A DNA stretch of 64,000 nt from a virus. The position numbers were made by a program, and so were the translations under genes. Each line of letters begins with the position of its first letter. Position 1 is the stretch's first letter. The stretch covers positions 65,830-129,829 of the IMG/VR virus record IMGVR_UViG_3300017917_001940; one strand, 5' to 3'. Positions 42,853-64,000 of the stretch are shown in pieces. The notes below the pieces were generated by a model that did no database searches, had not been told where the DNA came from, and was given only the letters and a program-made list of their open reading frames with translations.

Positions 42853-42902
42853 TTATATAGGTTAAACTGACAGAAGGTGATAAATAAAGTAGGAGATCAT
42901 CT

Positions 42903-49065: not shown

Positions 49066-49241
49066 GTGTAACTCTCCATTTTGTTGACAACAGCGAAATT
49101 GCTGTTAAGAATACTTAACCACTTAGATGATCAACTTTTATGCCTATAGAACTTTGAATCTAATGGCATAAGTATTTGGCTTGACTTCACAGCTACACAG
49201 TTACAAAATACCACATCTTAATTTTCAACATAAATAACAAT

Positions 49242-55507: not shown

Positions 55508-57775
55508 ATGCAGAATAATCCTGAAATTGAACAAATTGTTGAAGAGTCCGTTAGAATAGCTCGAACCAAGCAACATGAATATGTGCTAACCGAACACTTG
55601 CTACTGGCACTTATTCGCTATCAGCCATTCCGTAAAGTGTTAGAAAAGTATGGCACAGATATCACGATGTTCGAAACTGAGCTCAACGCATACTTAGACA
55701 GTTTGACCAGCTTGGTTAAACCTGGAGACATTCAGCCTAAAAAGACCAACGCTCTAGAGCGCACATTTAATCGTGCCCTAACACAAGTATTATTCACTGG
55801 ACGCAGAACCATCACCACACTGGATTTATATCTAGCCATGATGAGTGAGAACAACAGCCACGCTCATTATTACTTGCTCAAGCATGGTGTTAAGAAACAA
55901 GAGTTTGCTGAATTTTATAATAAGAATTACAATCACAATGATGTTAAAATTACCAATCAACAAGCAGATGAAATTCTTTCCGAGCACTGTACTAATTTAA
56001 CATTATTAGCAAAAGAAAATCGTCTAGAGCCAATGATTGGCCGCTCAGCAGAATTAGACGAAATGATCACTGTGTTAGCACGTCGCTTTAAAGCCAACGT
56101 GTTAATGGTGGGCGACCCAGGTGTGGGTAAAACTGCTATTGTTGAAGGACTGGCTCAGGAAATTCAAGCAGGACGTGTGCCAGAATTCCTCAAAGGACAC
56201 GAAGTATGGTCGCTGGAAATTGGATCATTATTAGCTGGTAGCAAATATCGTGGTGAATTTGAAGAGAAATTCAAGCAGGTGATCAAAGCTCTTGAAGCTA
56301 AAAAGAATTGCGTGTTGTTTGTGGACGAAGCACATACTATGAAAGGTGCTGGTGCTAGTTCAAATAGTAGTTTAGACTTTGCTAATATGTTAAAGCCAGC
56401 TATTACCAAAGGACATTTAAAAGTAGTGGCGTCAACCACGTGGGAAGAATACTACGAATCATTTGAAAAAGATCGTGCGCTCATGCGTCGTTTCCATAGA
56501 GTAAGCGTAGATGAACCCAACGCAGAAACTACAGAACAAATCTTAATTGGACTTAGCCCACGTTTAGAGCAGTTCCATAATGTATTAATTGATACAGACG
56601 CTATCATTGCCGCTGTGGAATTATCCGGTAGATATATCCATGATCGTAAAAATCCTGATAAATCAATTGATTTAGTAGATGGTGCTTGTGCTAGAGAACG
56701 CACTAAAGATCAGGGTAATGTAACTGTAACTAAAGAAATGATCATGGCACAGTTAAGCAAGGTCACAAGTATTCCTTTAGATCGATTACAAAATGAACGT
56801 AGTGCCAAAATCATGGAATTGGAAAGTAATATTAAAGAGCGATTATACGGACAAGATGAAGCAGTCGATAGCGTACTTGAACGTGTGTATATCAATTTCT
56901 CGGGCATTGGCAATGAAAAGAAACCAATTGCGTCATTTTTATTCCTAGGCCCAACTGGCACGGGTAAAACAGAACTAGCACGATTACTAGCCACTAACTT
57001 GGACATGCAACTGCTCAAGTATGACATGAGTGAATATCAAGAAAAGCATACAGTGGCGTCACTAATTGGTGCGCCTCCTGGATATGTGGGCTTCGAGGAC
57101 GGTAACGTCGGTGGTGGTAAACTTATTAGCGATATCTCCAAGCATCCGTTTGCTGTTGTCCTTTTCGACGAAATTGAAAAGGCACACCCAGATGTTATTA
57201 ACATCATGCTACAAATGCTTGATGAAGGACGCTTGACCAGTGCTAACGGTAAAACTGTTAACCTAAAGAACACTATCATTATCATGACGTCAAACTTAGG
57301 CGCCAGAGATAATGAGAATAATGTTATTGGCTTTGGACAAACGCTAGAGCGCACTGGGTCGGAAGATCGAGCCATGAAGGAATTCTTCAAACCCGAGCTA
57401 CGCAATCGTATTGATCAAGTGTGCAAGTTTAAGAAATTGGACACCCTGGCCATTAAGAAGATTGTTGTTAAATTCGTTGCTGAATTGCAGGACAGTTTAT
57501 TAAACAAAAACATTAAACTTACACTAAGCGAACCTGTAATTGACTTATTGGCAGACAAGGGTTATGATAGTAAAATGGGTGCTAGACCATTAAGTAGAAA
57601 AATCGACGAATTAATTCGTGTGCCATTGAGTAAAAAGATATTATTCGAAGGATTGAGTAATTGTAGCATACAAGCCACTCTAAATGAAGACGCTGTGGAA
57701 TTTAACATTTTACCCGAGGACGCTGTGCCTACAGTAAATTCAGAAGGAATCATTGTTTTTGAGCCTAAAGTTTAA
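55508..57775 (+). CDS. clpA: ClpA-like AAA+ unfoldase
   Basis: Clp N-domain; two Walker A motifs (GDPGVGKT, GPTGTGKT); IGF loop (VIGFG); 755 aa with no ClpB middle domain. Confidence 0.9.
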   Translation: MQNNPEIEQIVEESVRIARTKQHEYVLTEHLLLALIRYQPFRKVLEKYGTDITMFETELNAYLDSLTSLVKPGDIQPKKTNALERTFNRALTQVLFTGRRTITTLDLYLAMMSENNSHAHYYLLKHGVKKQEFAEFYNKNYNHNDVKITNQQADEILSEHCTNLTLLAKENRLEPMIGRSAELDEMITVLARRFKANVLMVGDPGVGKTAIVEGLAQEIQAGRVPEFLKGHEVWSLEIGSLLAGSKYRGEFEEKFKQVIKALEAKKNCVLFVDEAHTMKGAGASSNSSLDFANMLKPAITKGHLKVVASTTWEEYYESFEKDRALMRRFHRVSVDEPNAETTEQILIGLSPRLEQFHNVLIDTDAIIAAVELSGRYIHDRKNPDKSIDLVDGACARERTKDQGNVTVTKEMIMAQLSKVTSIPLDRLQNERSAKIMELESNIKERLYGQDEAVDSVLERVYINFSGIGNEKKPIASFLFLGPTGTGKTELARLLATNLDMQLLKYDMSEYQEKHTVASLIGAPPGYVGFEDGNVGGGKLISDISKHPFAVVLFDEIEKAHPDVINIMLQMLDEGRLTSANGKTVNLKNTIIIMTSNLGARDNENNVIGFGQTLERTGSEDRAMKEFFKPELRNRIDQVCKFKKLDTLAIKKIVVKFVAELQDSLLNKNIKLTLSEPVIDLLADKGYDSKMGARPLSRKIDELIRVPLSKKILFEGLSNCSIQATLNEDAVEFNILPEDAVPTVNSEGIIVFEPKV

Positions 57776-59430: not shown

Positions 59431-59439
59431 AATAAATAC

Positions 59440-60987
59440 ATGATGAAAAAGATTGTCATCATGCCAGGCGGGTTTCACCCATTTCATGCCGGGCATTTAA
59501 GTTTGTACAACGCGGCCAAACAGGCATTTCCTGACGCTGAAGTATTTGTTGCCGCTACAGATGATACCAGCACACGTCCTTTTCCATTTCAAGTTAAAGA
59601 AAAATTAGCACAACTAGCCGGAGTAGATCCTGGGCATTTTGTCAAGGTTAAAAGTCCTTTTTCAGCTAAAGAAATCACCCAGCACTTTGATCCTGACACC
59701 ACTGAATTAATATTTGTACGCAGTGAAAAAGATCGTAACAAACCACCACAAGCAGGTGGCATTAAAAAGTCTGGTGAGCCAGCATACTTGCAACCATTAA
59801 CTCGAGACGTTCAACCCATGAGCAAGCATGCCTATATGACTTACTTGCCCACTGTGGAATTCGGCCCGGGTATTACATCAGCTACAGAAATTCGCACAGC
59901 CTGGCCAGGATTAAATGACAAAAGAAAACAAGCCATGGTCATGAGCTTGTATCCTAAAACTCAAGGTAATCCAGCATTAGTACAAAACGTCATTAAGATG
60001 TTGGACACAGCCATTGGCAATGGACCAGAACAAATAAATGAAGGCATGGGCAGTTGGTTAATCAGCAAACTGGCCAATCTAGCAGTTAAATCTGGTGCTG
60101 TAAGTCAAGAACAGTTTCAAGGTTGGCTAGCTGAAAATGTAGAAGAAGTACGCATGGAAATGATGGAGTACTTGCGTGACCATCCATATCGTTCAGTAAT
60201 TGCTCCTAAGATTAACATCATGATGGATCGTTTAAAAGAAGTTGAAACTCCTGAGCAATTTAGTCAAGGTGTGCGGATTGTTTCTGAATTCTTAAATCAC
60301 GCTGTACGCTTGGAAGAATCTGACCCAGACTACATTGAAGAAAAATGGAGTCAAAAGTATAAAAGATCTATTGACTGCTCACATCCTAAGGGCTTTAGCC
60401 AACGAGCCCACTGTGCTGGCCGTAAAAAAAAAGTAAATGAAAGCTCAGGCTATAGTTTGCAGGGTAGTTTTACCCCAGACTTAACTCTGAGCAAAGTTTG
60501 GCTGTTGGATGAGCTAGCCAAAATTGAGCCTACAGTAGGCACAGTTTATATTCTAGGTTCTTGGTATGGTAATCTAGCCTTGTACATGAACTTACAACCC
60601 ACAGTCAAATATACCAATATTATCAATGTAGAAACGGATCAATCAATGTTAGATCAAAGTCAACGTATGCTTGATCACATTGGTGCTGACAACATTGAAT
60701 ACATGAATAAAGATGCTAACGATCTAGATTATCGCCAATTGGGTAATGCCGGAGTAGTAATCAATTGTAGTCTAACTGACATGGATGGTACTGATTGGTT
60801 CCGCCATATTCCAGACGGCACACTGGTTGTAATGCAAGCACGTGATCACGACCCTGGATACCAGTTTAATTCGCCTGAAGATATTGTTAAAAAATTCCCG
60901 TTATCACAAGTGCTATATTCTGGCACCAAGCATTTACAAGATCCCGAAACACACTACAATCGTTTTATGGTCATAGGTAGAAAATAA
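59440..60987 (+). CDS. multidomain protein: cytidyltransferase + helical module + Cys module + methyltransferase-like domain
   Basis: GGFHPFHAGH...TSATEIR; KWSQKYKRSIDCSHPKGFSQRAHC; ILGSWYGNL. Confidence 0.8.
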   Translation: MMKKIVIMPGGFHPFHAGHLSLYNAAKQAFPDAEVFVAATDDTSTRPFPFQVKEKLAQLAGVDPGHFVKVKSPFSAKEITQHFDPDTTELIFVRSEKDRNKPPQAGGIKKSGEPAYLQPLTRDVQPMSKHAYMTYLPTVEFGPGITSATEIRTAWPGLNDKRKQAMVMSLYPKTQGNPALVQNVIKMLDTAIGNGPEQINEGMGSWLISKLANLAVKSGAVSQEQFQGWLAENVEEVRMEMMEYLRDHPYRSVIAPKINIMMDRLKEVETPEQFSQGVRIVSEFLNHAVRLEESDPDYIEEKWSQKYKRSIDCSHPKGFSQRAHCAGRKKKVNESSGYSLQGSFTPDLTLSKVWLLDELAKIEPTVGTVYILGSWYGNLALYMNLQPTVKYTNIINVETDQSMLDQSQRMLDHIGADNIEYMNKDANDLDYRQLGNAGVVINCSLTDMDGTDWFRHIPDGTLVVMQARDHDPGYQFNSPEDIVKKFPLSQVLYSGTKHLQDPETHYNRFMVIGRK

Positions 60988-61042
60988 CACCTCCACTTAA
61001 ACAGCCATTAAATATTCCTACATTATCTACAATGAGGACAAA

Positions 61043-61951
61043 ATGGCAGATCAAGAACAACAAACATCAGTAACAACACAAAATCCAGCACAGCCTGGTG
61101 GACAGCAAATTCAAGTTAATATTGATTATTTAAAAACTACCAAGGTTCATATTTGTATGCCTTGTTATGGTGGTATGCTTGCCGAGCAAACGTTTATGAG
61201 TTTTGTTAAATGGGGTAATACAGCACGTCAACTGGGCATTGACTGGACCATTGAAACCATGACCAATGAAAGTCTAATCACACGTGGTCGTAATACGCTG
61301 ACTGCTAAGTTCTTGCTTAATAAAGATTCAACTCACTTGATGTTTATTGACAGCGACATTGGTTGGGAACCATGGCACTTGTTGGTGTTGCTAAATGCTG
61401 ATAAAGATGTTATTGGTGGTTTATACCCAATGAAATCTTTACCAATTAAATGGTGCGTAAATGGATTCGAAGGTGCTAAAGTTGAAGGTGATTTGCAAGA
61501 AGTCTCAAAAACTGGCACAGGATTTTTGTTGATCAAACGTCATGTGTTTGAAAAAATGAACAGTCATCCAGCTGTTAAACCATTTAAAAATGACATTGGT
61601 TTGCCTGCAGAATTAGATCCATATATGAAAACCTATTTTGACACAGCGGTACGTGAAAATAGATATTATTCCGAAGACTGGATGTTCTGTGAAAACTGGC
61701 GAGATCTGGGTGGCGAAGTTTGGGTAGACAAGCGTGTGTTATTGCGTCATATGGGTTCATACATATTTGATAGTGCCGCACAGGATCGCTTGTACAATGA
61801 ATTCCTGGCCTTGGCACAACAAAATGGACATATTATTGCTCCACATTTACAACAGCCAAATCCTCCAACAGATGTTAATGCTGTGGCAGAGCCTCCGGCG
61901 CCGGTTACTAGTAAAAAATCTACAAGTAAACGCCGAGCCAATGCCAAATAA
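61043..61951 (+). CDS. GT-A fold glycosyltransferase-like protein
   Basis: ICMPCYGG, ESLITRGRN, MFIDSD, GTGFLLIKR, SEDW.FC. Confidence 0.8.
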   Translation: MADQEQQTSVTTQNPAQPGGQQIQVNIDYLKTTKVHICMPCYGGMLAEQTFMSFVKWGNTARQLGIDWTIETMTNESLITRGRNTLTAKFLLNKDSTHLMFIDSDIGWEPWHLLVLLNADKDVIGGLYPMKSLPIKWCVNGFEGAKVEGDLQEVSKTGTGFLLIKRHVFEKMNSHPAVKPFKNDIGLPAELDPYMKTYFDTAVRENRYYSEDWMFCENWRDLGGEVWVDKRVLLRHMGSYIFDSAAQDRLYNEFLALAQQNGHIIAPHLQQPNPPTDVNAVAEPPAPVTSKKSTSKRRANAK

Positions 61952-61955
61952 AACC

Positions 61956-61978
61956 AAACCCGCTGAGGCGGGTTTTTT
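61956..61978 (+). terminator. intrinsic terminator
   Basis: AAACCCGC-TGAG-GCGGGTTT-TTT. Confidence 0.88.
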
Positions 61979-62009
61979 AATGAATAAAAAATAAAAATAA
62001 ATATAAGAT

Positions 62010-64000
62010 ATGAATATACTCGAGCTTGATTCCTACGACCTTACCGATGCTGTTAAATTTAATGATCAATTAAATCCTGCTATTTGGTCCGGTGAACGTA
62101 TGCGCCCAGAAGTACGTGAACGTTTATTGGCCATTGCCGATGATTTCCGTGAGTTTTTAGGCTTGAGTAATATCAATGTAAAAGACATTACAGTGTCAGG
62201 TTCAAATGCGGGTTATACATACACTCCACATTCGGACATTGACTTGCACCTAGTAGTGGACATTCCACAGGCAGACAGCGATGAAGTTTATCGCGAATTA
62301 TTTGACGCTAAAAAATATCAATACAACGACCTACACGATTATAAGATAAAAAACTACGATGTAGAGCTTTATGTAGAAAACGCAAACAAGCCGCCTAAGT
62401 CGGCTGGCATATATTCAATTAAAAATGATGACTGGGTACACATTCCACGTCGATTAAAAGCCGATGTAAATGACGCCGCAGTGAAAAGTAAATTTGAAGA
62501 TATTGGGTATCGTATTGAATCAGCAGTTAAAAGCAACGACTATGAAAAGATCGATCAACTGGCCAAGAAAGTTAAGAACTTTCGCCAAGCAGGATTAGAT
62601 GCTCATGGTGAACTAGGCCCAGAAAATTTAGCATATAAAATATTACGCACACAAGGTTTAATTAAAAAATTATACGATGCCCGCAACTTAGCACTAGATA
62701 AAAAGTTAAGTTTAAAAGAAAAAGTTTGCCAGCCATTTAAGTATGGATTTAAAACTGAAGATTTGGACACAGATGGCATAATGATGACACGTCCAACTAA
62801 CTGTTCAAGCGAAGCCGCAGTACCAGATGCCAAACCCAGCGACGAAGATATTCTTAAAGATTTTATTAAGTTCTGTGTAGCTGAATTAAAAATTGAGCAC
62901 ATGCCCCGAGTTAAACTGCGTAAAGATCCGCAGTGGAGCAAGGTACATAAAACATTTGGTCGCTACAATGACGATATCAAAACATTAGAAGTAGCATGGG
63001 GCCAGCGTCACATCATGGACGTGTTGCGTACTGTAGCTCATGAGTTAACACACAAACATCAACACGAGCGTGATGGTGAACGCATGGGTCCAGATGCAGG
63101 TGAAACTGGTAGCCCTTGGGAAAACGAAGCCAATGCACGTGCTGGCGTACTCATGCGTGATTATGGTCGTTTGCACCCGGAATATTTTGAAGCAGGCCAA
63201 GCCGAACACTTACATGGTGACGAAGTAAAAGAATCAGCGAGTGGTTATATCCCCACTAAAAAGCAAGCCAAGGATCCAAGATTCAGCATGGCACTTACCA
63301 AGGATATCAAACCCGGTCAAGTGGGCAAGGAAGCCAACAAACTAGCATTAGACACAGACAGTCAAGGCCATCCACACTTGTTAATGACAGGTTTGCGTAA
63401 CGCTCTTAAAGAGTTTAAAGAAACTGGTAAGTTAGCCAAGCCCAAAACAAAACTTGGTTATAATACACAGCCGTTAACACAAGAGCCCGGTGGCATTGAA
63501 GATCCACTGGGAAATCAAGAAGCCACTGGTCCAGAGTTTCCACCAGAGTTTCCTCAAGGTACAACTAAGATTGATGTTAGTGATACAACTGATTGGTACC
63601 GTTTGGGCATGGATATTTCAGACATGGATGATGCTGAGCCAGATGATTACAATCAAGGTCCACCACAAACTATTGTAGTCTATCCAAGCAAGGATGCCGA
63701 AGATTACTATAATAAACAATTTAAACGTCTAGGTTTAAAAACTGGCAAATCCGCGGGTAGCACTAAACTAGACGAAGATGAGCAGTTGGATGAAGTTAAA
63801 ATGTCACCTGGTGCTCTTAAAAAGTTTGCCGCAAGTCCAGAAGCCAAAGGTATCATGGCTGGCTTTGAAGCAGAATTAATCTTCCGTGACACACAAGGTG
63901 ATGATGACAGTGACGATTATGAAGCAGACTACGATGCTGATGAGCGTTGCTACAATATTGACCAAGTTGTTGAATTCTTTGAAAATGATGACTATGGTTA
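62010..64000 (+). CDS. large multidomain protein, 3'-truncated (absent from the ORF track): pol-beta-type nucleotidyltransferase + zincin metallopeptidase + probable amidoligase start
   Basis: Hand translation: VSGSN...SDIDLH (62193-62249), AHELTH...ENEANA (from 63036), GFEAE (63861); TAAATA at 61998. Confidence 0.8.
   Translation, partial: MNILELDSYDLTDAVKFNDQLNPAIWSGERMRPEVRERLLAIADDFREFLGLSNINVKDITVSGSNAGYTYTPHSDIDLHLVVDIPQADSDEVYRELFDAKKYQYNDLHDYKIKNYDVELYVENANKPPKSAGIYSIKNDDWVHIPRRLKADVNDAAVKSKFEDIGYRIESAVKSNDYEKIDQLAKKVKNFRQAGLDAHGELGPENLAYKILRTQGLIKKLYDARNLALDKKLSLKEKVCQPFKYGFKTEDLDTDGIMMTRPTNCSSEAAVPDAKPSDEDILKDFIKFCVAELKIEHMPRVKLRKDPQWSKVHKTFGRYNDDIKTLEVAWGQRHIMDVLRTVAHELTHKHQHERDGERMGPDAGETGSPWENEANARAGVLMRDYGRLHPEYFEAGQAEHLHGDEVKESASGYIPTKKQAKDPRFSMALTKDIKPGQVGKEANKLALDTDSQGHPHLLMTGLRNALKEFKETGKLAKPKTKLGYNTQPLTQEPGGIEDPLGNQEATGPEFPPEFPQGTTKIDVSDTTDWYRLGMDISDMDDAEPDDYNQGPPQTIVVYPSKDAEDYYNKQFKRLGLKTGKSAGSTKLDEDEQLDEVKMSPGALKKFAASPEAKGIMAGFEAELIFRDTQGDDDSDDYEADYDADERCYNIDQVVEFFENDDYG

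Follow-up and report, generated by a model that had tools for sequence, protein, structure and literature searches.

Two open reading frames at the end of the window, the 64,000-nucleotide stretch of DNA analysed here, each encode several unrelated enzymes joined in a single chain. Their joints bear the motif of the T4-type head protease, which makes it probable that the chains enter the capsid and are cut by a gp21-type protease. The source is an uncultured T4-like giant phage represented by a contig of 129.8 kb that is 38% complete; complete relatives measure ~345 kb. Both ORF A (59440-60987) and ORF C (62010 onward) are present as first described. ORF C, which had been said to run off the window, remains open past both the window edge and the end of the contig, and its full-length relatives comprise 860-2082 residues. 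Domain searches, AlphaFold models and Foldseek bear out the original prediction that unrelated enzymes are strung together in the two ORFs. The domain identities it assigned (cytidyltransferase, helical, Cys and methyltransferase-like modules in the first; nucleotidyltransferase, HExxH and an amidoligase-like start in the second) were right. The content is of the polyvalent type, with at least two unrelated effector domains per polypeptide, including a Pol-beta nucleotidyltransferase (NTase) and a zincin MPTase. The features of ORF A are listed below.

59431-59438, plus strand: late-type promoter-like motif (AATAAATA), 2 nt ahead of the ORF A ATG
59440-60987, plus strand: ORF A, 515 aa; cytidylyltransferase, helical module, M3 and methyltransferase
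59440-60021, plus strand: M1, cytidylyltransferase-like HxGH nucleotidyltransferase, residues 1-194 (PF01467; pLDDT >90)
60034-60042, plus strand: junction I-N-E, residues 199-201, inside linker 195-201 (AF2; homologue tails)
60043-60315, plus strand: M2, variable helical module, residues 202-292 (AF2 helices from ~201, pLDDT 57-83)
60328-60342, plus strand: conserved joint D-Y-I-E-E, residues 297-301, directly 5' of M3 (homologues)
60343-60432, plus strand: M3, basic two-Cys connector module of ~30 residues (about 302-331), low-confidence in AF2
60433-60441, plus strand: junction V-N-E, residues 332-334, ahead of the methyltransferase
60442-60984, plus strand: M4, class I SAM-dependent methyltransferase fold, residues 335-515 (Foldseek)

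The AF2 model of ORF A has a mean pLDDT of 85. M1 matches PF01467 over residues 7-94 with 26.6 bits (cut-off 21), its HxGH motif is H-P-F-H-A-G-H (residues 13-19), and many relatives carry it as a separate gene of 219-265 aa. ORF A has no N-terminal leader; a strand starts at residue 3 (AF2, pLDDT >90), and its homologues likewise open with the Rossmann strand. Unrelated inserts occupy the position of M2 in homologues. Nearly every ORF A homologue has the sequence DY[ILVM]xE at its end or ahead of M3. M3, for which no Pfam family matched, occurs in at least 4315 protein clusters, joined to many different enzymes, and M3-bearing cyanophage proteins, which have the same flanks, are located in structural clusters. 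M4, also without a Pfam match, has a Rossmann-like class I SAM-methyltransferase fold with predicted SAM binding; Foldseek retrieved aKMT, TehB and NodS at a probability of 1.0 and a TM score of up to 0.71 on the target. Its homologues fill more than 1400 clusters and are mostly stand-alone proteins of 192 aa. The features downstream of ORF A are as follows.

61043-61951, plus strand: ORF B, 302 aa, conserved neighbour (phrog_1574)
61956-61975, plus strand: terminator-like hairpin 3' of ORF B, with a T run after the hairpin on the plus strand
61996-62003, plus strand: late-type promoter-like motif (AATAAATA), 6 nt ahead of the ORF C ATG
62010-64000, plus strand: ORF C, 663 N-terminal residues of a multidomain protein, the rest beyond the contig end
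62010-62024, plus strand: N-terminal M-N-I-L-E, low pLDDT, resembling the T4 Alt propeptide and the leader of a head-cluster protein in the gp67 position
62028-62717, plus strand: Pol-beta-type nucleotidyltransferase with helical C-domain, residues 7-236 (PF01909 weak; Foldseek)
62712-62720, plus strand: junction L-K-E, residues 235-237, where linker 237-272 starts
62826-63191, plus strand: mini-zincin metallopeptidase, residues 273-394, HExxH at 344-348 (Foldseek)
63225-63233, plus strand: junction V-K-E, residues 406-408, in linker 395-416 (pLDDT <50)
63234-63425, plus strand: mobile 'ASGYIP' module, residues 409-472, low-confidence fold
63549-63755, plus strand: small alpha/beta module, residues 514-582 (AF2 pLDDT 59-80)
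63768-63794, plus strand: two L-D-E motifs, residues 587-589 and 593-595, linker 583-595
63795-63998, plus strand: Amidoligase_2 start, leader helix and first GFEAE strand, cut by the contig end

At the N-terminus of ORF C, residues 1-6 have pLDDT <50; E5 is kept in 91% of homologues and L6 in all of them. Residues 7-236 match AAD(9)/AadA/ANT(4')/CdnE-type NTases in Foldseek, the catalytic GS...DxD is invariant among homologues, and stand-alone NTase genes of 234-243 aa are found in relatives and cyanophages. L235 and E237 of the following junction are invariant in 14 homologues while P2 varies. The zincin module matches jannalysin (4jix, probability 0.99), with H344, E345, H348 and E371/E373 invariant in homologues; one relative (L005) gives a weak Peptidase_M78 match. 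The V-K-E joint has Glu in 41 of 41 contexts and I, L, V or M at P3 in ~33 of the 41, regardless of the upstream module. Family searches returned nothing for the 'ASGYIP' module, which is conserved and joined to many different upstream modules, or for the alpha/beta module 514-582; linker 473-513 between them holds no conserved motif. The second L-D-E (593-595) is the conserved joint preceding the amidoligase, with L593 and E595 invariant and D, F, L or M at P2. Only the first strand of the Amidoligase_2 module lies within the window; full-length relatives match PF12224 downstream of a GFEAE-type strand (28-38 bits, cut-off 22), and RsoM2USA_26 has the same strand-plus-insert layout.

Both ORFs had been assigned to late promoters, which agrees with the conservation of a putative late-type motif, TAAATA, 5-14 nt 5' of the ATG in homologues of ORF A and ORF C. 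In a complete relative, G001, TAAATA also precedes portal and tail genes and is depleted elsewhere in the genome. The window contains 11 copies of ATAAATA where 24 would be expected, each of them just upstream of an ORF. The hairpin behind ORF B had been assigned to the minus strand by the scan. ORF B has neither leader nor joints and lies outside the proposed cargo set. The other neighbours are a ClpA-like ATPase and small unknown ORFs; none of the genes at this locus is fused or adjacent to a gene for portal, MuF, terminase or another virion protein.

The original prediction placed the domain boundaries at hydrophobic-X-Glu motifs. In the AlphaFold models every motif it named falls inside a low-confidence (pLDDT <50) linker or no more than 3 residues from one: INE199-201, LEE291-293, IEE299-301 and VNE332-334 in ORF A, and ILE3-5, LKE235-237, VKE406-408, LDE587-589 and LDE593-595 in ORF C. 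Taken singly, each ORF shows a modest enrichment, with 4 of 11 sites in ~6-11% of the residues of ORF A and 5 of 9 sites in linkers of ORF C (shuffle p ~0.07). The comparison of linkers with cores that had been proposed as a check gave a clearer result across 14 homologues. [ILVM]xE occurs 5.26 times per 100 aa in linkers versus 1.0 in cores, about five-fold (observed/expected 2.56 and 0.68, respectively). The summed count of 93 lies above every one of 2000 composition-matched shuffles (mean 36, maximum 59), although the homologues are related, so the counts are not independent events. A motif lies within 14 residues of the M1 end in 41 of 49 ORF A-family tails (shuffle mean 12.9). Thus, a cleavage motif at exposed sites is enriched over chance. 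Conservation is restricted to the junction copies, and every conserved joint keeps P3 and P1 constant while P2 varies.

Relatives carry the same modules as separate genes, with fusion or fission exactly at the joints. That the fusions arose from misassembly or frameshift errors in an incomplete, uncultured metagenomic contig is hardly credible, as dozens of independent contigs repeat the fused and split forms with frames intact. The stand-alone forms bear leaders of 8-15 residues that closely resemble the propeptides of T4 gp24 (M-A-K-I-N-E-L-L-R-E/S), Alt (M-E-L-I-T-E/L) and IPII/III (M-K-T-Y-Q-E-F-I-A-E/A), slashes marking the leader ends. T4 leader sequences have a capsid-targeting role (PMC9026906). 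The stand-alone methyltransferase leader is M-I-L-N-E-L-Y-x-L-x-E/SSG in 112 of 112 homologues, [LIVF]xE preceding SSGYSL in every one after 8-15 aa. The stand-alone amidoligase leader, M-R-F-R-E-F-I-R-E...L-D-E/V, is short and ends in LxE, and M3-led proteins begin M-K-A-Y-E-F-I-T-E/K. The candidate leader of ORF C, M-N-I-L-E/L, is Alt-like. The junction Glu is kept in fused NTases; three of the seven stand-alone NTases examined stop at the preceding Leu/Ile and the other four extend a few residues beyond it.

The premise of a T4-type head protease holds for complete relatives, since their genomes carry Peptidase_S77 as well as a gp23-type capsid protein that has L-K-E in the T4 cleavage position (Y-L-K-E/N aligned to the T4 L-T-E/A site). 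Peptidase_S77, the gp21 type, was found in four complete or nearly complete relatives (95-100%, CheckV) at 82-92 bits; the window's own contig (38% complete) gave no match. A small head-cluster ORF in the gp67 position of complete relatives begins M-I-L-N-E. Agrobacterium phage Atu_ph07 gp196 (AUZ94978.1) is a distant homologue, but its match to the amidoligase module is robust (E 8e-33). Mass spectrometry found it in virions, where 14 peptides covered 30% of the protein (PMC6102473 supplement), although these virions were only PEG-purified and the same 131-protein list includes a topoisomerase (PMC6102473). Comparative evidence favours capsid targeting and cutting. Given the split relatives with T4-like leaders, the gp21-type protease of complete relatives and the Atu_ph07 virion homologue, we propose as the best reading that the products of ORF A and ORF C are loaded into the capsid and cut by a gp21-type enzyme, and consider this somewhat likelier to be right than wrong.

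It is rather unlikely that the proteins are ordinary mosaic cytoplasmic enzymes of late infection that escape both packaging and the head protease, with joints that are helix caps or module edges moving with the modules at gene fusion and splitting. Such enzymes would leave unexplained the five-fold linker density beyond composition-matched shuffles, the T4-like leaders ending in the motif on stand-alone modules, and the three NTases that stop just before the junction Glu. The Atu_ph07 homologue in virions also speaks against them. Ordinary enzymes would fit the adjacent ClpA-like ATPase, a non-virion control with 25 sites, 9 of them conserved and with variable P2 there too, and an overall motif density that is ordinary (1.6 per 100 aa versus a proteome mean of 1.42). 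The leaderless ORF A, the ~150 kb between locus (52-67 kb) and head genes (199-207 kb) in G001, and the S-CRM01 stand-alone NTase gene, which sits among replication genes, point the same way. All of these count against capsid loading and cutting, as do the motif-free linker 473-513, the site 3' of M3, where P3 is usually K, H or Q and not hydrophobic, the only ~two-fold genome-wide enrichment of M-x-I-x-E-L N-termini, the PEG-only Atu_ph07 virions and the kinship of the homologues.

Large phage proteins combining a Pol-beta NTase, a zincin MPTase and other effectors have been described as polyvalent proteins (Iyer et al. 2017, PMC5512222), with fast domain shuffling and predicted delivery alongside DNA. 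They are typically fused to or adjoin MuF, portal or terminase genes. In the available text of that article a word search finds no 'amidoligase', and prohead-protease joints and T4-type leaders are not described. Autoprocessing by MPTase domains, for example in P1 DdrB, is proposed there (PMC5512222), and ORF C encodes an intact mini-zincin with invariant HExxH and downstream Glu. Cutting of the chains by this zincin, in cis or in trans and with the prohead protease uninvolved, is nevertheless doubtful. The joint motif fits T4 gp21 specificity and no known zincin rule; ORF A, stand-alone methyltransferases and cyanophage proteins, all lacking a peptidase domain, show the same joints and leaders; and the relatives' capsid protein has the same motif at the T4-equivalent site.

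Capsid loading with gp21-type cutting has a close parallel in T4 IPI, IPII, IPIII and Alt (PMC9026906), which have a short N-terminal leader ending in hydrophobic-x-Glu, a gp21-type protease and late expression; the counterparts here are the candidate leader of ORF C and the leaders of stand-alone forms, the protease of complete relatives and a putative late-type motif. Alt is an enzyme that is packaged and trimmed at both ends (PMC9026906), and the leaders of M3-led and stand-alone modules are near-copies of T4 leaders. However, T4 cargo consists of single end-trimmed modules, whereas here a single chain holds several unrelated enzymes and the motif lies at internal joints, relatives show the modules in reshuffled order, and ORF A has no N-terminal leader. 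In phiKZ-like giant phages (201phi2-1, SPN3US) many head-internal proteins are also cut, often multiply, after x-x-Glu by a gp21-related protease, but these ejection and inner-body proteins belong to another lineage, carry a small residue-x-Glu motif and include no chains of recognisable metabolic enzymes. Atu_ph07 gp196 and RsoM2USA_26, from cultured jumbo phages, are amidoligase-module homologues with short leaders ending in L-x-E; unlike ORF C, they are single-module proteins of ~500 aa.

In the proposed mechanism, ORF A and ORF C would encode mosaic cargo carried by a ~345-kb T4-like jumbo phage and would be transcribed from the late-type promoter motif common to its structural genes. The chains would enter the prohead core, and the gp21-type prohead protease would cut after the Glu of the hydrophobic-x-Glu joints in the disordered inter-module linkers. 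Cytidylyltransferase, methyltransferase, nucleotidyltransferase, zincin peptidase and amidoligase would each be freed, together with small basic peptides such as M3, and these products would exit the head along with the DNA. We infer, as did the original prediction of a ready-made host-takeover kit, that the products of ORF A and ORF C may be packaged, cleaved and injected in this way and may have a role in host takeover.

The original prediction was that two reading frames at the end of the window, ORF A and ORF C, encode chains of unrelated enzymes that are packaged in the head and cut by a prohead protease after hydrophobic-x-Glu motifs. Both frames are present as described, and the predicted domain list agrees with Pfam matches, AF2 models, Foldseek comparisons and full-length relatives. 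The features discussed are as follows.

55508–57775, ClpA/ClpB-like AAA+ protein, 755 aa, upstream of ORF A
59440–60987, ORF A, 515 aa: cytidylyltransferase (M1), helical module (M2), basic two-Cys module (M3), methyltransferase fold (M4)
60343–60432, the M3 copy of ORF A
61043–61951, ORF B, 302 aa
61956–61975, hairpin and T run 3' of ORF B
62010 to the contig end, ORF C, 663 aa so far: NTase, zincin, further modules, amidoligase start
63234–63425, ASGYIP module of ORF C

The AF2 model of ORF A (mean pLDDT 85) comprises M1 (residues 1–194), the helical M2 (~ 201–292), M3 (~ 302–331) and M4 (335–515). The N-terminus matches PF01467, M3 is a basic, low-confidence stretch containing two Cys, and in Foldseek M4 matches class I SAM methyltransferases (probability 1.0). 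In the ORF C model (pLDDT 69) the NTase domain, residues 7–236, is confidently predicted and most resembles aminoglycoside adenylyltransferases and CD-NTases in Foldseek; a mini-zincin at 273–394 matches jannalysin (Foldseek probability 0.99). A weakly folded module (409–472), a small α/β module (514–582) and a helix with the GFEAE strand follow. The catalytic residues of NTase and zincin are invariant among ORF C homologues. Full-length relatives comprise 860–2082 residues and carry Amidoligase_2 above cut-off 3' of the GFEAE strand, and one of them also contains a weak ParB_N match. The 514–582 module has no family in Pfam, PHROGs or ESM Atlas. The same is true of the ASGYIP module (A-S-G-Y-I-P...D-P-R-F...A-L-T-x-D-I-x-P-G...), which is conserved, mobile, joined to many different upstream modules and predicted with low confidence. 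Further short modules recur in the variable tails of ORF A homologues (L051, L052, L054, L067, L044 and others), for example D-E-N-Q-G-W-A-A-T and a ~ 90-residue module with A-T-L-V-N-D-P...G-G-L-G-T-W...G-R-R-P, which suggests a larger vocabulary of shuffled modules.

The contig of 129.8 kb (IMG/VR), of which the window is the final 64 kb, is 38% complete according to CheckV. Comparison was made with 77 related loci, several from complete genomes of 342–353 kb with terminal repeats. The complete relatives have genes for a prohead protease of the T4 gp21 type (Peptidase_S77, profile matches of 82–92 bits) and for a major capsid protein of the gp23 type, and their head genes follow the T4-like order portal, small ORF, acidic ORF, protease, scaffold, capsid. 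Judged from this gene content and order, the lineage is a T4-like jumbo phage. Among cultured phages, Ralstonia phage RsoM2USA and Agrobacterium phage Atu_ph07 are the nearest to this lineage in the ORF A and ORF C genes; none was found with a full-length ORF C homologue. ORF B, which matches phrog_1574 and faintly an Anp1-type protein, is strongly conserved, and almost every relative has it between ORF A and ORF C. The upstream AAA+ protein has a mean column identity of 73% across relatives. In some relatives a calcineurin-like metallophosphatase gene (PF00149; 8120–8971 of the related locus L005) directly follows the cytidylyltransferase gene and precedes ORF B.

The two genes had also been assigned late promoters. 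The window contains 11 copies of ATAAATA where 24 would be expected, and each copy lies directly 5' of an ORF and points the same way. The TAAATA core is kept 5–14 nt 5' of the ATG in ORF A and ORF C homologues and lies 25–30 nt 5' of the ORF B start, with a Shine-Dalgarno sequence between. In the complete relative genome G001, where TAAATA is depleted (204 vs 385 expected), it stands before genes of the portal, tail and baseplate region and also before the ORF A/ORF C locus. The label "late" appears reasonable, given the T4 late promoter TATAAATA as an analogue. A simple scan found no excess of sigma-70 promoters. The distance from TAAATA to the start is bimodal, 10–14 nt without a Shine-Dalgarno sequence or 20–32 nt with one between (window 59431–59438, 61996–62003, 49230–49236 and 42880–42886, and genome-wide in G001); the sequence of the former class implies leaderless or near-leaderless late mRNAs.

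The motifs do fall at domain boundaries: each one named in the original prediction lies within, or at most 3 residues from, a linker of pLDDT < 50. In ORF A, 4 of 11 sites fall in 6–11% of the residues, and in ORF C 5 of 9 are in linkers (shuffle p ~ 0.07), so that in these two models alone the placement is suggestive only. The proposed comparison of linkers with cores was run on 14 ORF C homologues and yielded 5.26 vs 1.0 [ILVM]xE per 100 residues, with observed/expected ratios from local composition of 2.56 and 0.68, respectively. Summed over linkers the count is 93, a value that none of 2000 within-linker shuffles reached (mean 36, maximum 59). In the ORF A family a motif occurs at most 14 residues past M1 in 41 of 49 distinct tails against 12.9 expected, in a stretch that is otherwise poorly conserved. 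Since homologues share ancestry, independent events are fewer than these counts suggest. A point against the proposed cutting is the ordinary overall density of the motif (1.6 vs a proteome mean of 1.42 per 100 aa). In conserved joints, that is, motifs at domain boundaries, the hydrophobic P3 and the Glu are fixed and P2 is variable; motif sites internal to cores are not conserved.

Conserved joints
NTase C-terminus: L-S-L-x-E
5' of the ASGYIP module: [VLIM]-x-E
Amidoligase: L-x-E, then V/I-K-M
Preceding M3: D-Y-[ILVM]-x-E
Methyltransferase: [LIVF]-x-E, then S-S-G-Y-S-L

Query-anchored BLAST overlooked most joints because its HSPs end at joints. Conservation alone was dropped as an argument, since by this measure the adjoining ClpA-like ATPase, used as control, also has conserved [ILVM]xE sites, nine in number.

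The most telling evidence is the fusion, fission and leader pattern seen in the sequences. In relatives the same modules occur as separate genes, split at the joints. The methyltransferase forms > 1400 homologue clusters, mostly stand-alone with 192 residues, and all 112 stand-alone proteins inspected carry an 8–15-residue leader, typically M-I-L-N-E-L-Y-x-L-x-E, followed by S-S-G-Y-S-L. The stand-alone amidoligase begins M-R-F-R-E-F-I-R-E...E-L-D-E|V-K-M, and in its cultured-phage homologues the first 9–13 residues end in L-S-E or L-T-E. M3-led proteins start with M-K-A-Y-E-F-I-T-E|K or close variants. The corresponding T4 records are M-A-K-I-N-E-L-L-R-E|S for gp24, M-E-L-I-T-E|L for Alt, M-K-T-Y-Q-E-F-I-A-E|A for IPII and IPIII, and cleavage at L-T-E|A in gp23. 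The ten-residue leader of the T4 IPs is an experimentally defined capsid targeting sequence, and gp21 trims both ends of Alt (PMC9026906). The relatives' capsid protein has Y-L-K-E|N where the gp23 cleavage site aligns, and their small ORF following the portal gene begins M-I-L-N-E. The stand-alone NTases of S-CRM01 and two relatives stop at ...L-S-L or ...L-S-I where fused forms continue with x-E; thus the Glu looks like an addition belonging to the joint. Separately, the M-x-I-x-E-L N-termini were counted genome-wide and set aside, as their ~ two-fold enrichment is too weak.

M3 is a module of ~ 30 residues (W-S-x-K-Y-K...G-F-S-Q-x-A-H-C) with no family in Pfam, PHROGs or ESM Atlas. At least 4315 clusters of longer proteins contain it; its fusion partners there include cytidylyltransferases, AAA_33 kinases, Pol-β NTases and a deaminase-GNAT protein, and a single protein carries it three times. 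Over 89 contexts, 33 from related loci and 56 from a large database, Glu stands two residues before the Trp in 88, and I/L/V/M/F four residues before it in ~ 97%. Downstream of M3 the protein either ends at ...R-K-K or continues K-x-N-E|S, a site whose usually non-hydrophobic P3 misfits the strict T4 rule. M3 proteins of cyanophages S-SM2 and P-TIM68 have the same flanks and are encoded between terminase genes or directly 3' of the capsid gene; one has a T4-like leader. A 245-aa M3-led protein with DUF6321 is encoded downstream of an ORF C homologue (L005 14717–15451; G001 60057–60794); its [ILVM]xE density, 4.5 per 100 aa, is the second highest in the G001 proteome, just below that of the scaffold protein.

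Atu_ph07 gp196 (AUZ94978.1), encoded next to the portal gene, aligns with the amidoligase module of an ORF C homologue (E 8e-33). In the published virion proteome 14 unique peptides cover 30% of this protein, although those virions were PEG-purified only and the list of 131 proteins includes a topoisomerase subunit (PMC6102473). The detection is supportive of packaging but not decisive. The RsoM2USA proteomics, covering the ten strongest gel bands only, is uninformative.

Packaging combined with gp21-type cutting thus gained comparative evidence from joints, leaders, fission and gp196, and we consider it somewhat the likelier account of the ORF A and ORF C chains. However, ORF A and its homologues start directly at the first Rossmann strand with no leader, in G001 some 150 kb separate the locus from the head module, and linker 473–513 of ORF C contains no motif. 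Our guess is that ORF A might be targeted through its C-terminal D-Y-I-E-E motif or M3. Processing could instead be the work of the zincin embedded in ORF C, a role put forward for such domains in polyvalent proteins (PMC5512222), but the same joints occur in proteins with no peptidase domain and match gp21 specificity, both of which argue for the head protease. Assembly artefacts were rejected as the source of the fusions, because fused and split forms recur across many contigs.

More tentatively, head-protease processing may serve a plug-in cargo system common to T4-superfamily phages, namely jumbo freshwater lineages and cyanomyoviruses. A short T4-type leader, or a place within a chain, could direct any enzyme to the prohead; modules would be linked by standard hydrophobic-x-Glu joints, often via M3. 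The head protease would cut the chain into free enzymes and basic peptides, to be delivered with the DNA, and M3 would be a dedicated connector or a DNA-associated internal peptide. Among the closest established systems, the T4 internal proteins and Alt combine a leader with gp21 trimming, whereas here several unrelated enzymes share a chain with internal joints and shuffled modules. Polyvalent proteins (Iyer et al. 2017, PMC5512222) differ in genomic context and proposed cutter, and the ejection proteins of phiKZ-like phages are multiply cut. The literature searched yielded no description of protease-jointed enzyme chains in T4-like phages.

If this reading is true, the role of head-protease processing in T4-like phages extends beyond shell maturation and the trimming of small internal proteins: it would serve as a general means of freeing exchangeable payloads of several enzymes that are injected as infection begins. 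This would explain metabolic-looking enzymes behind late promoters, and leader plus joints would provide a simple sequence rule predicting virion-delivered effectors in uncultured phages. Natural designs would also be suggested for loading multiple proteins into T4-based delivery particles.
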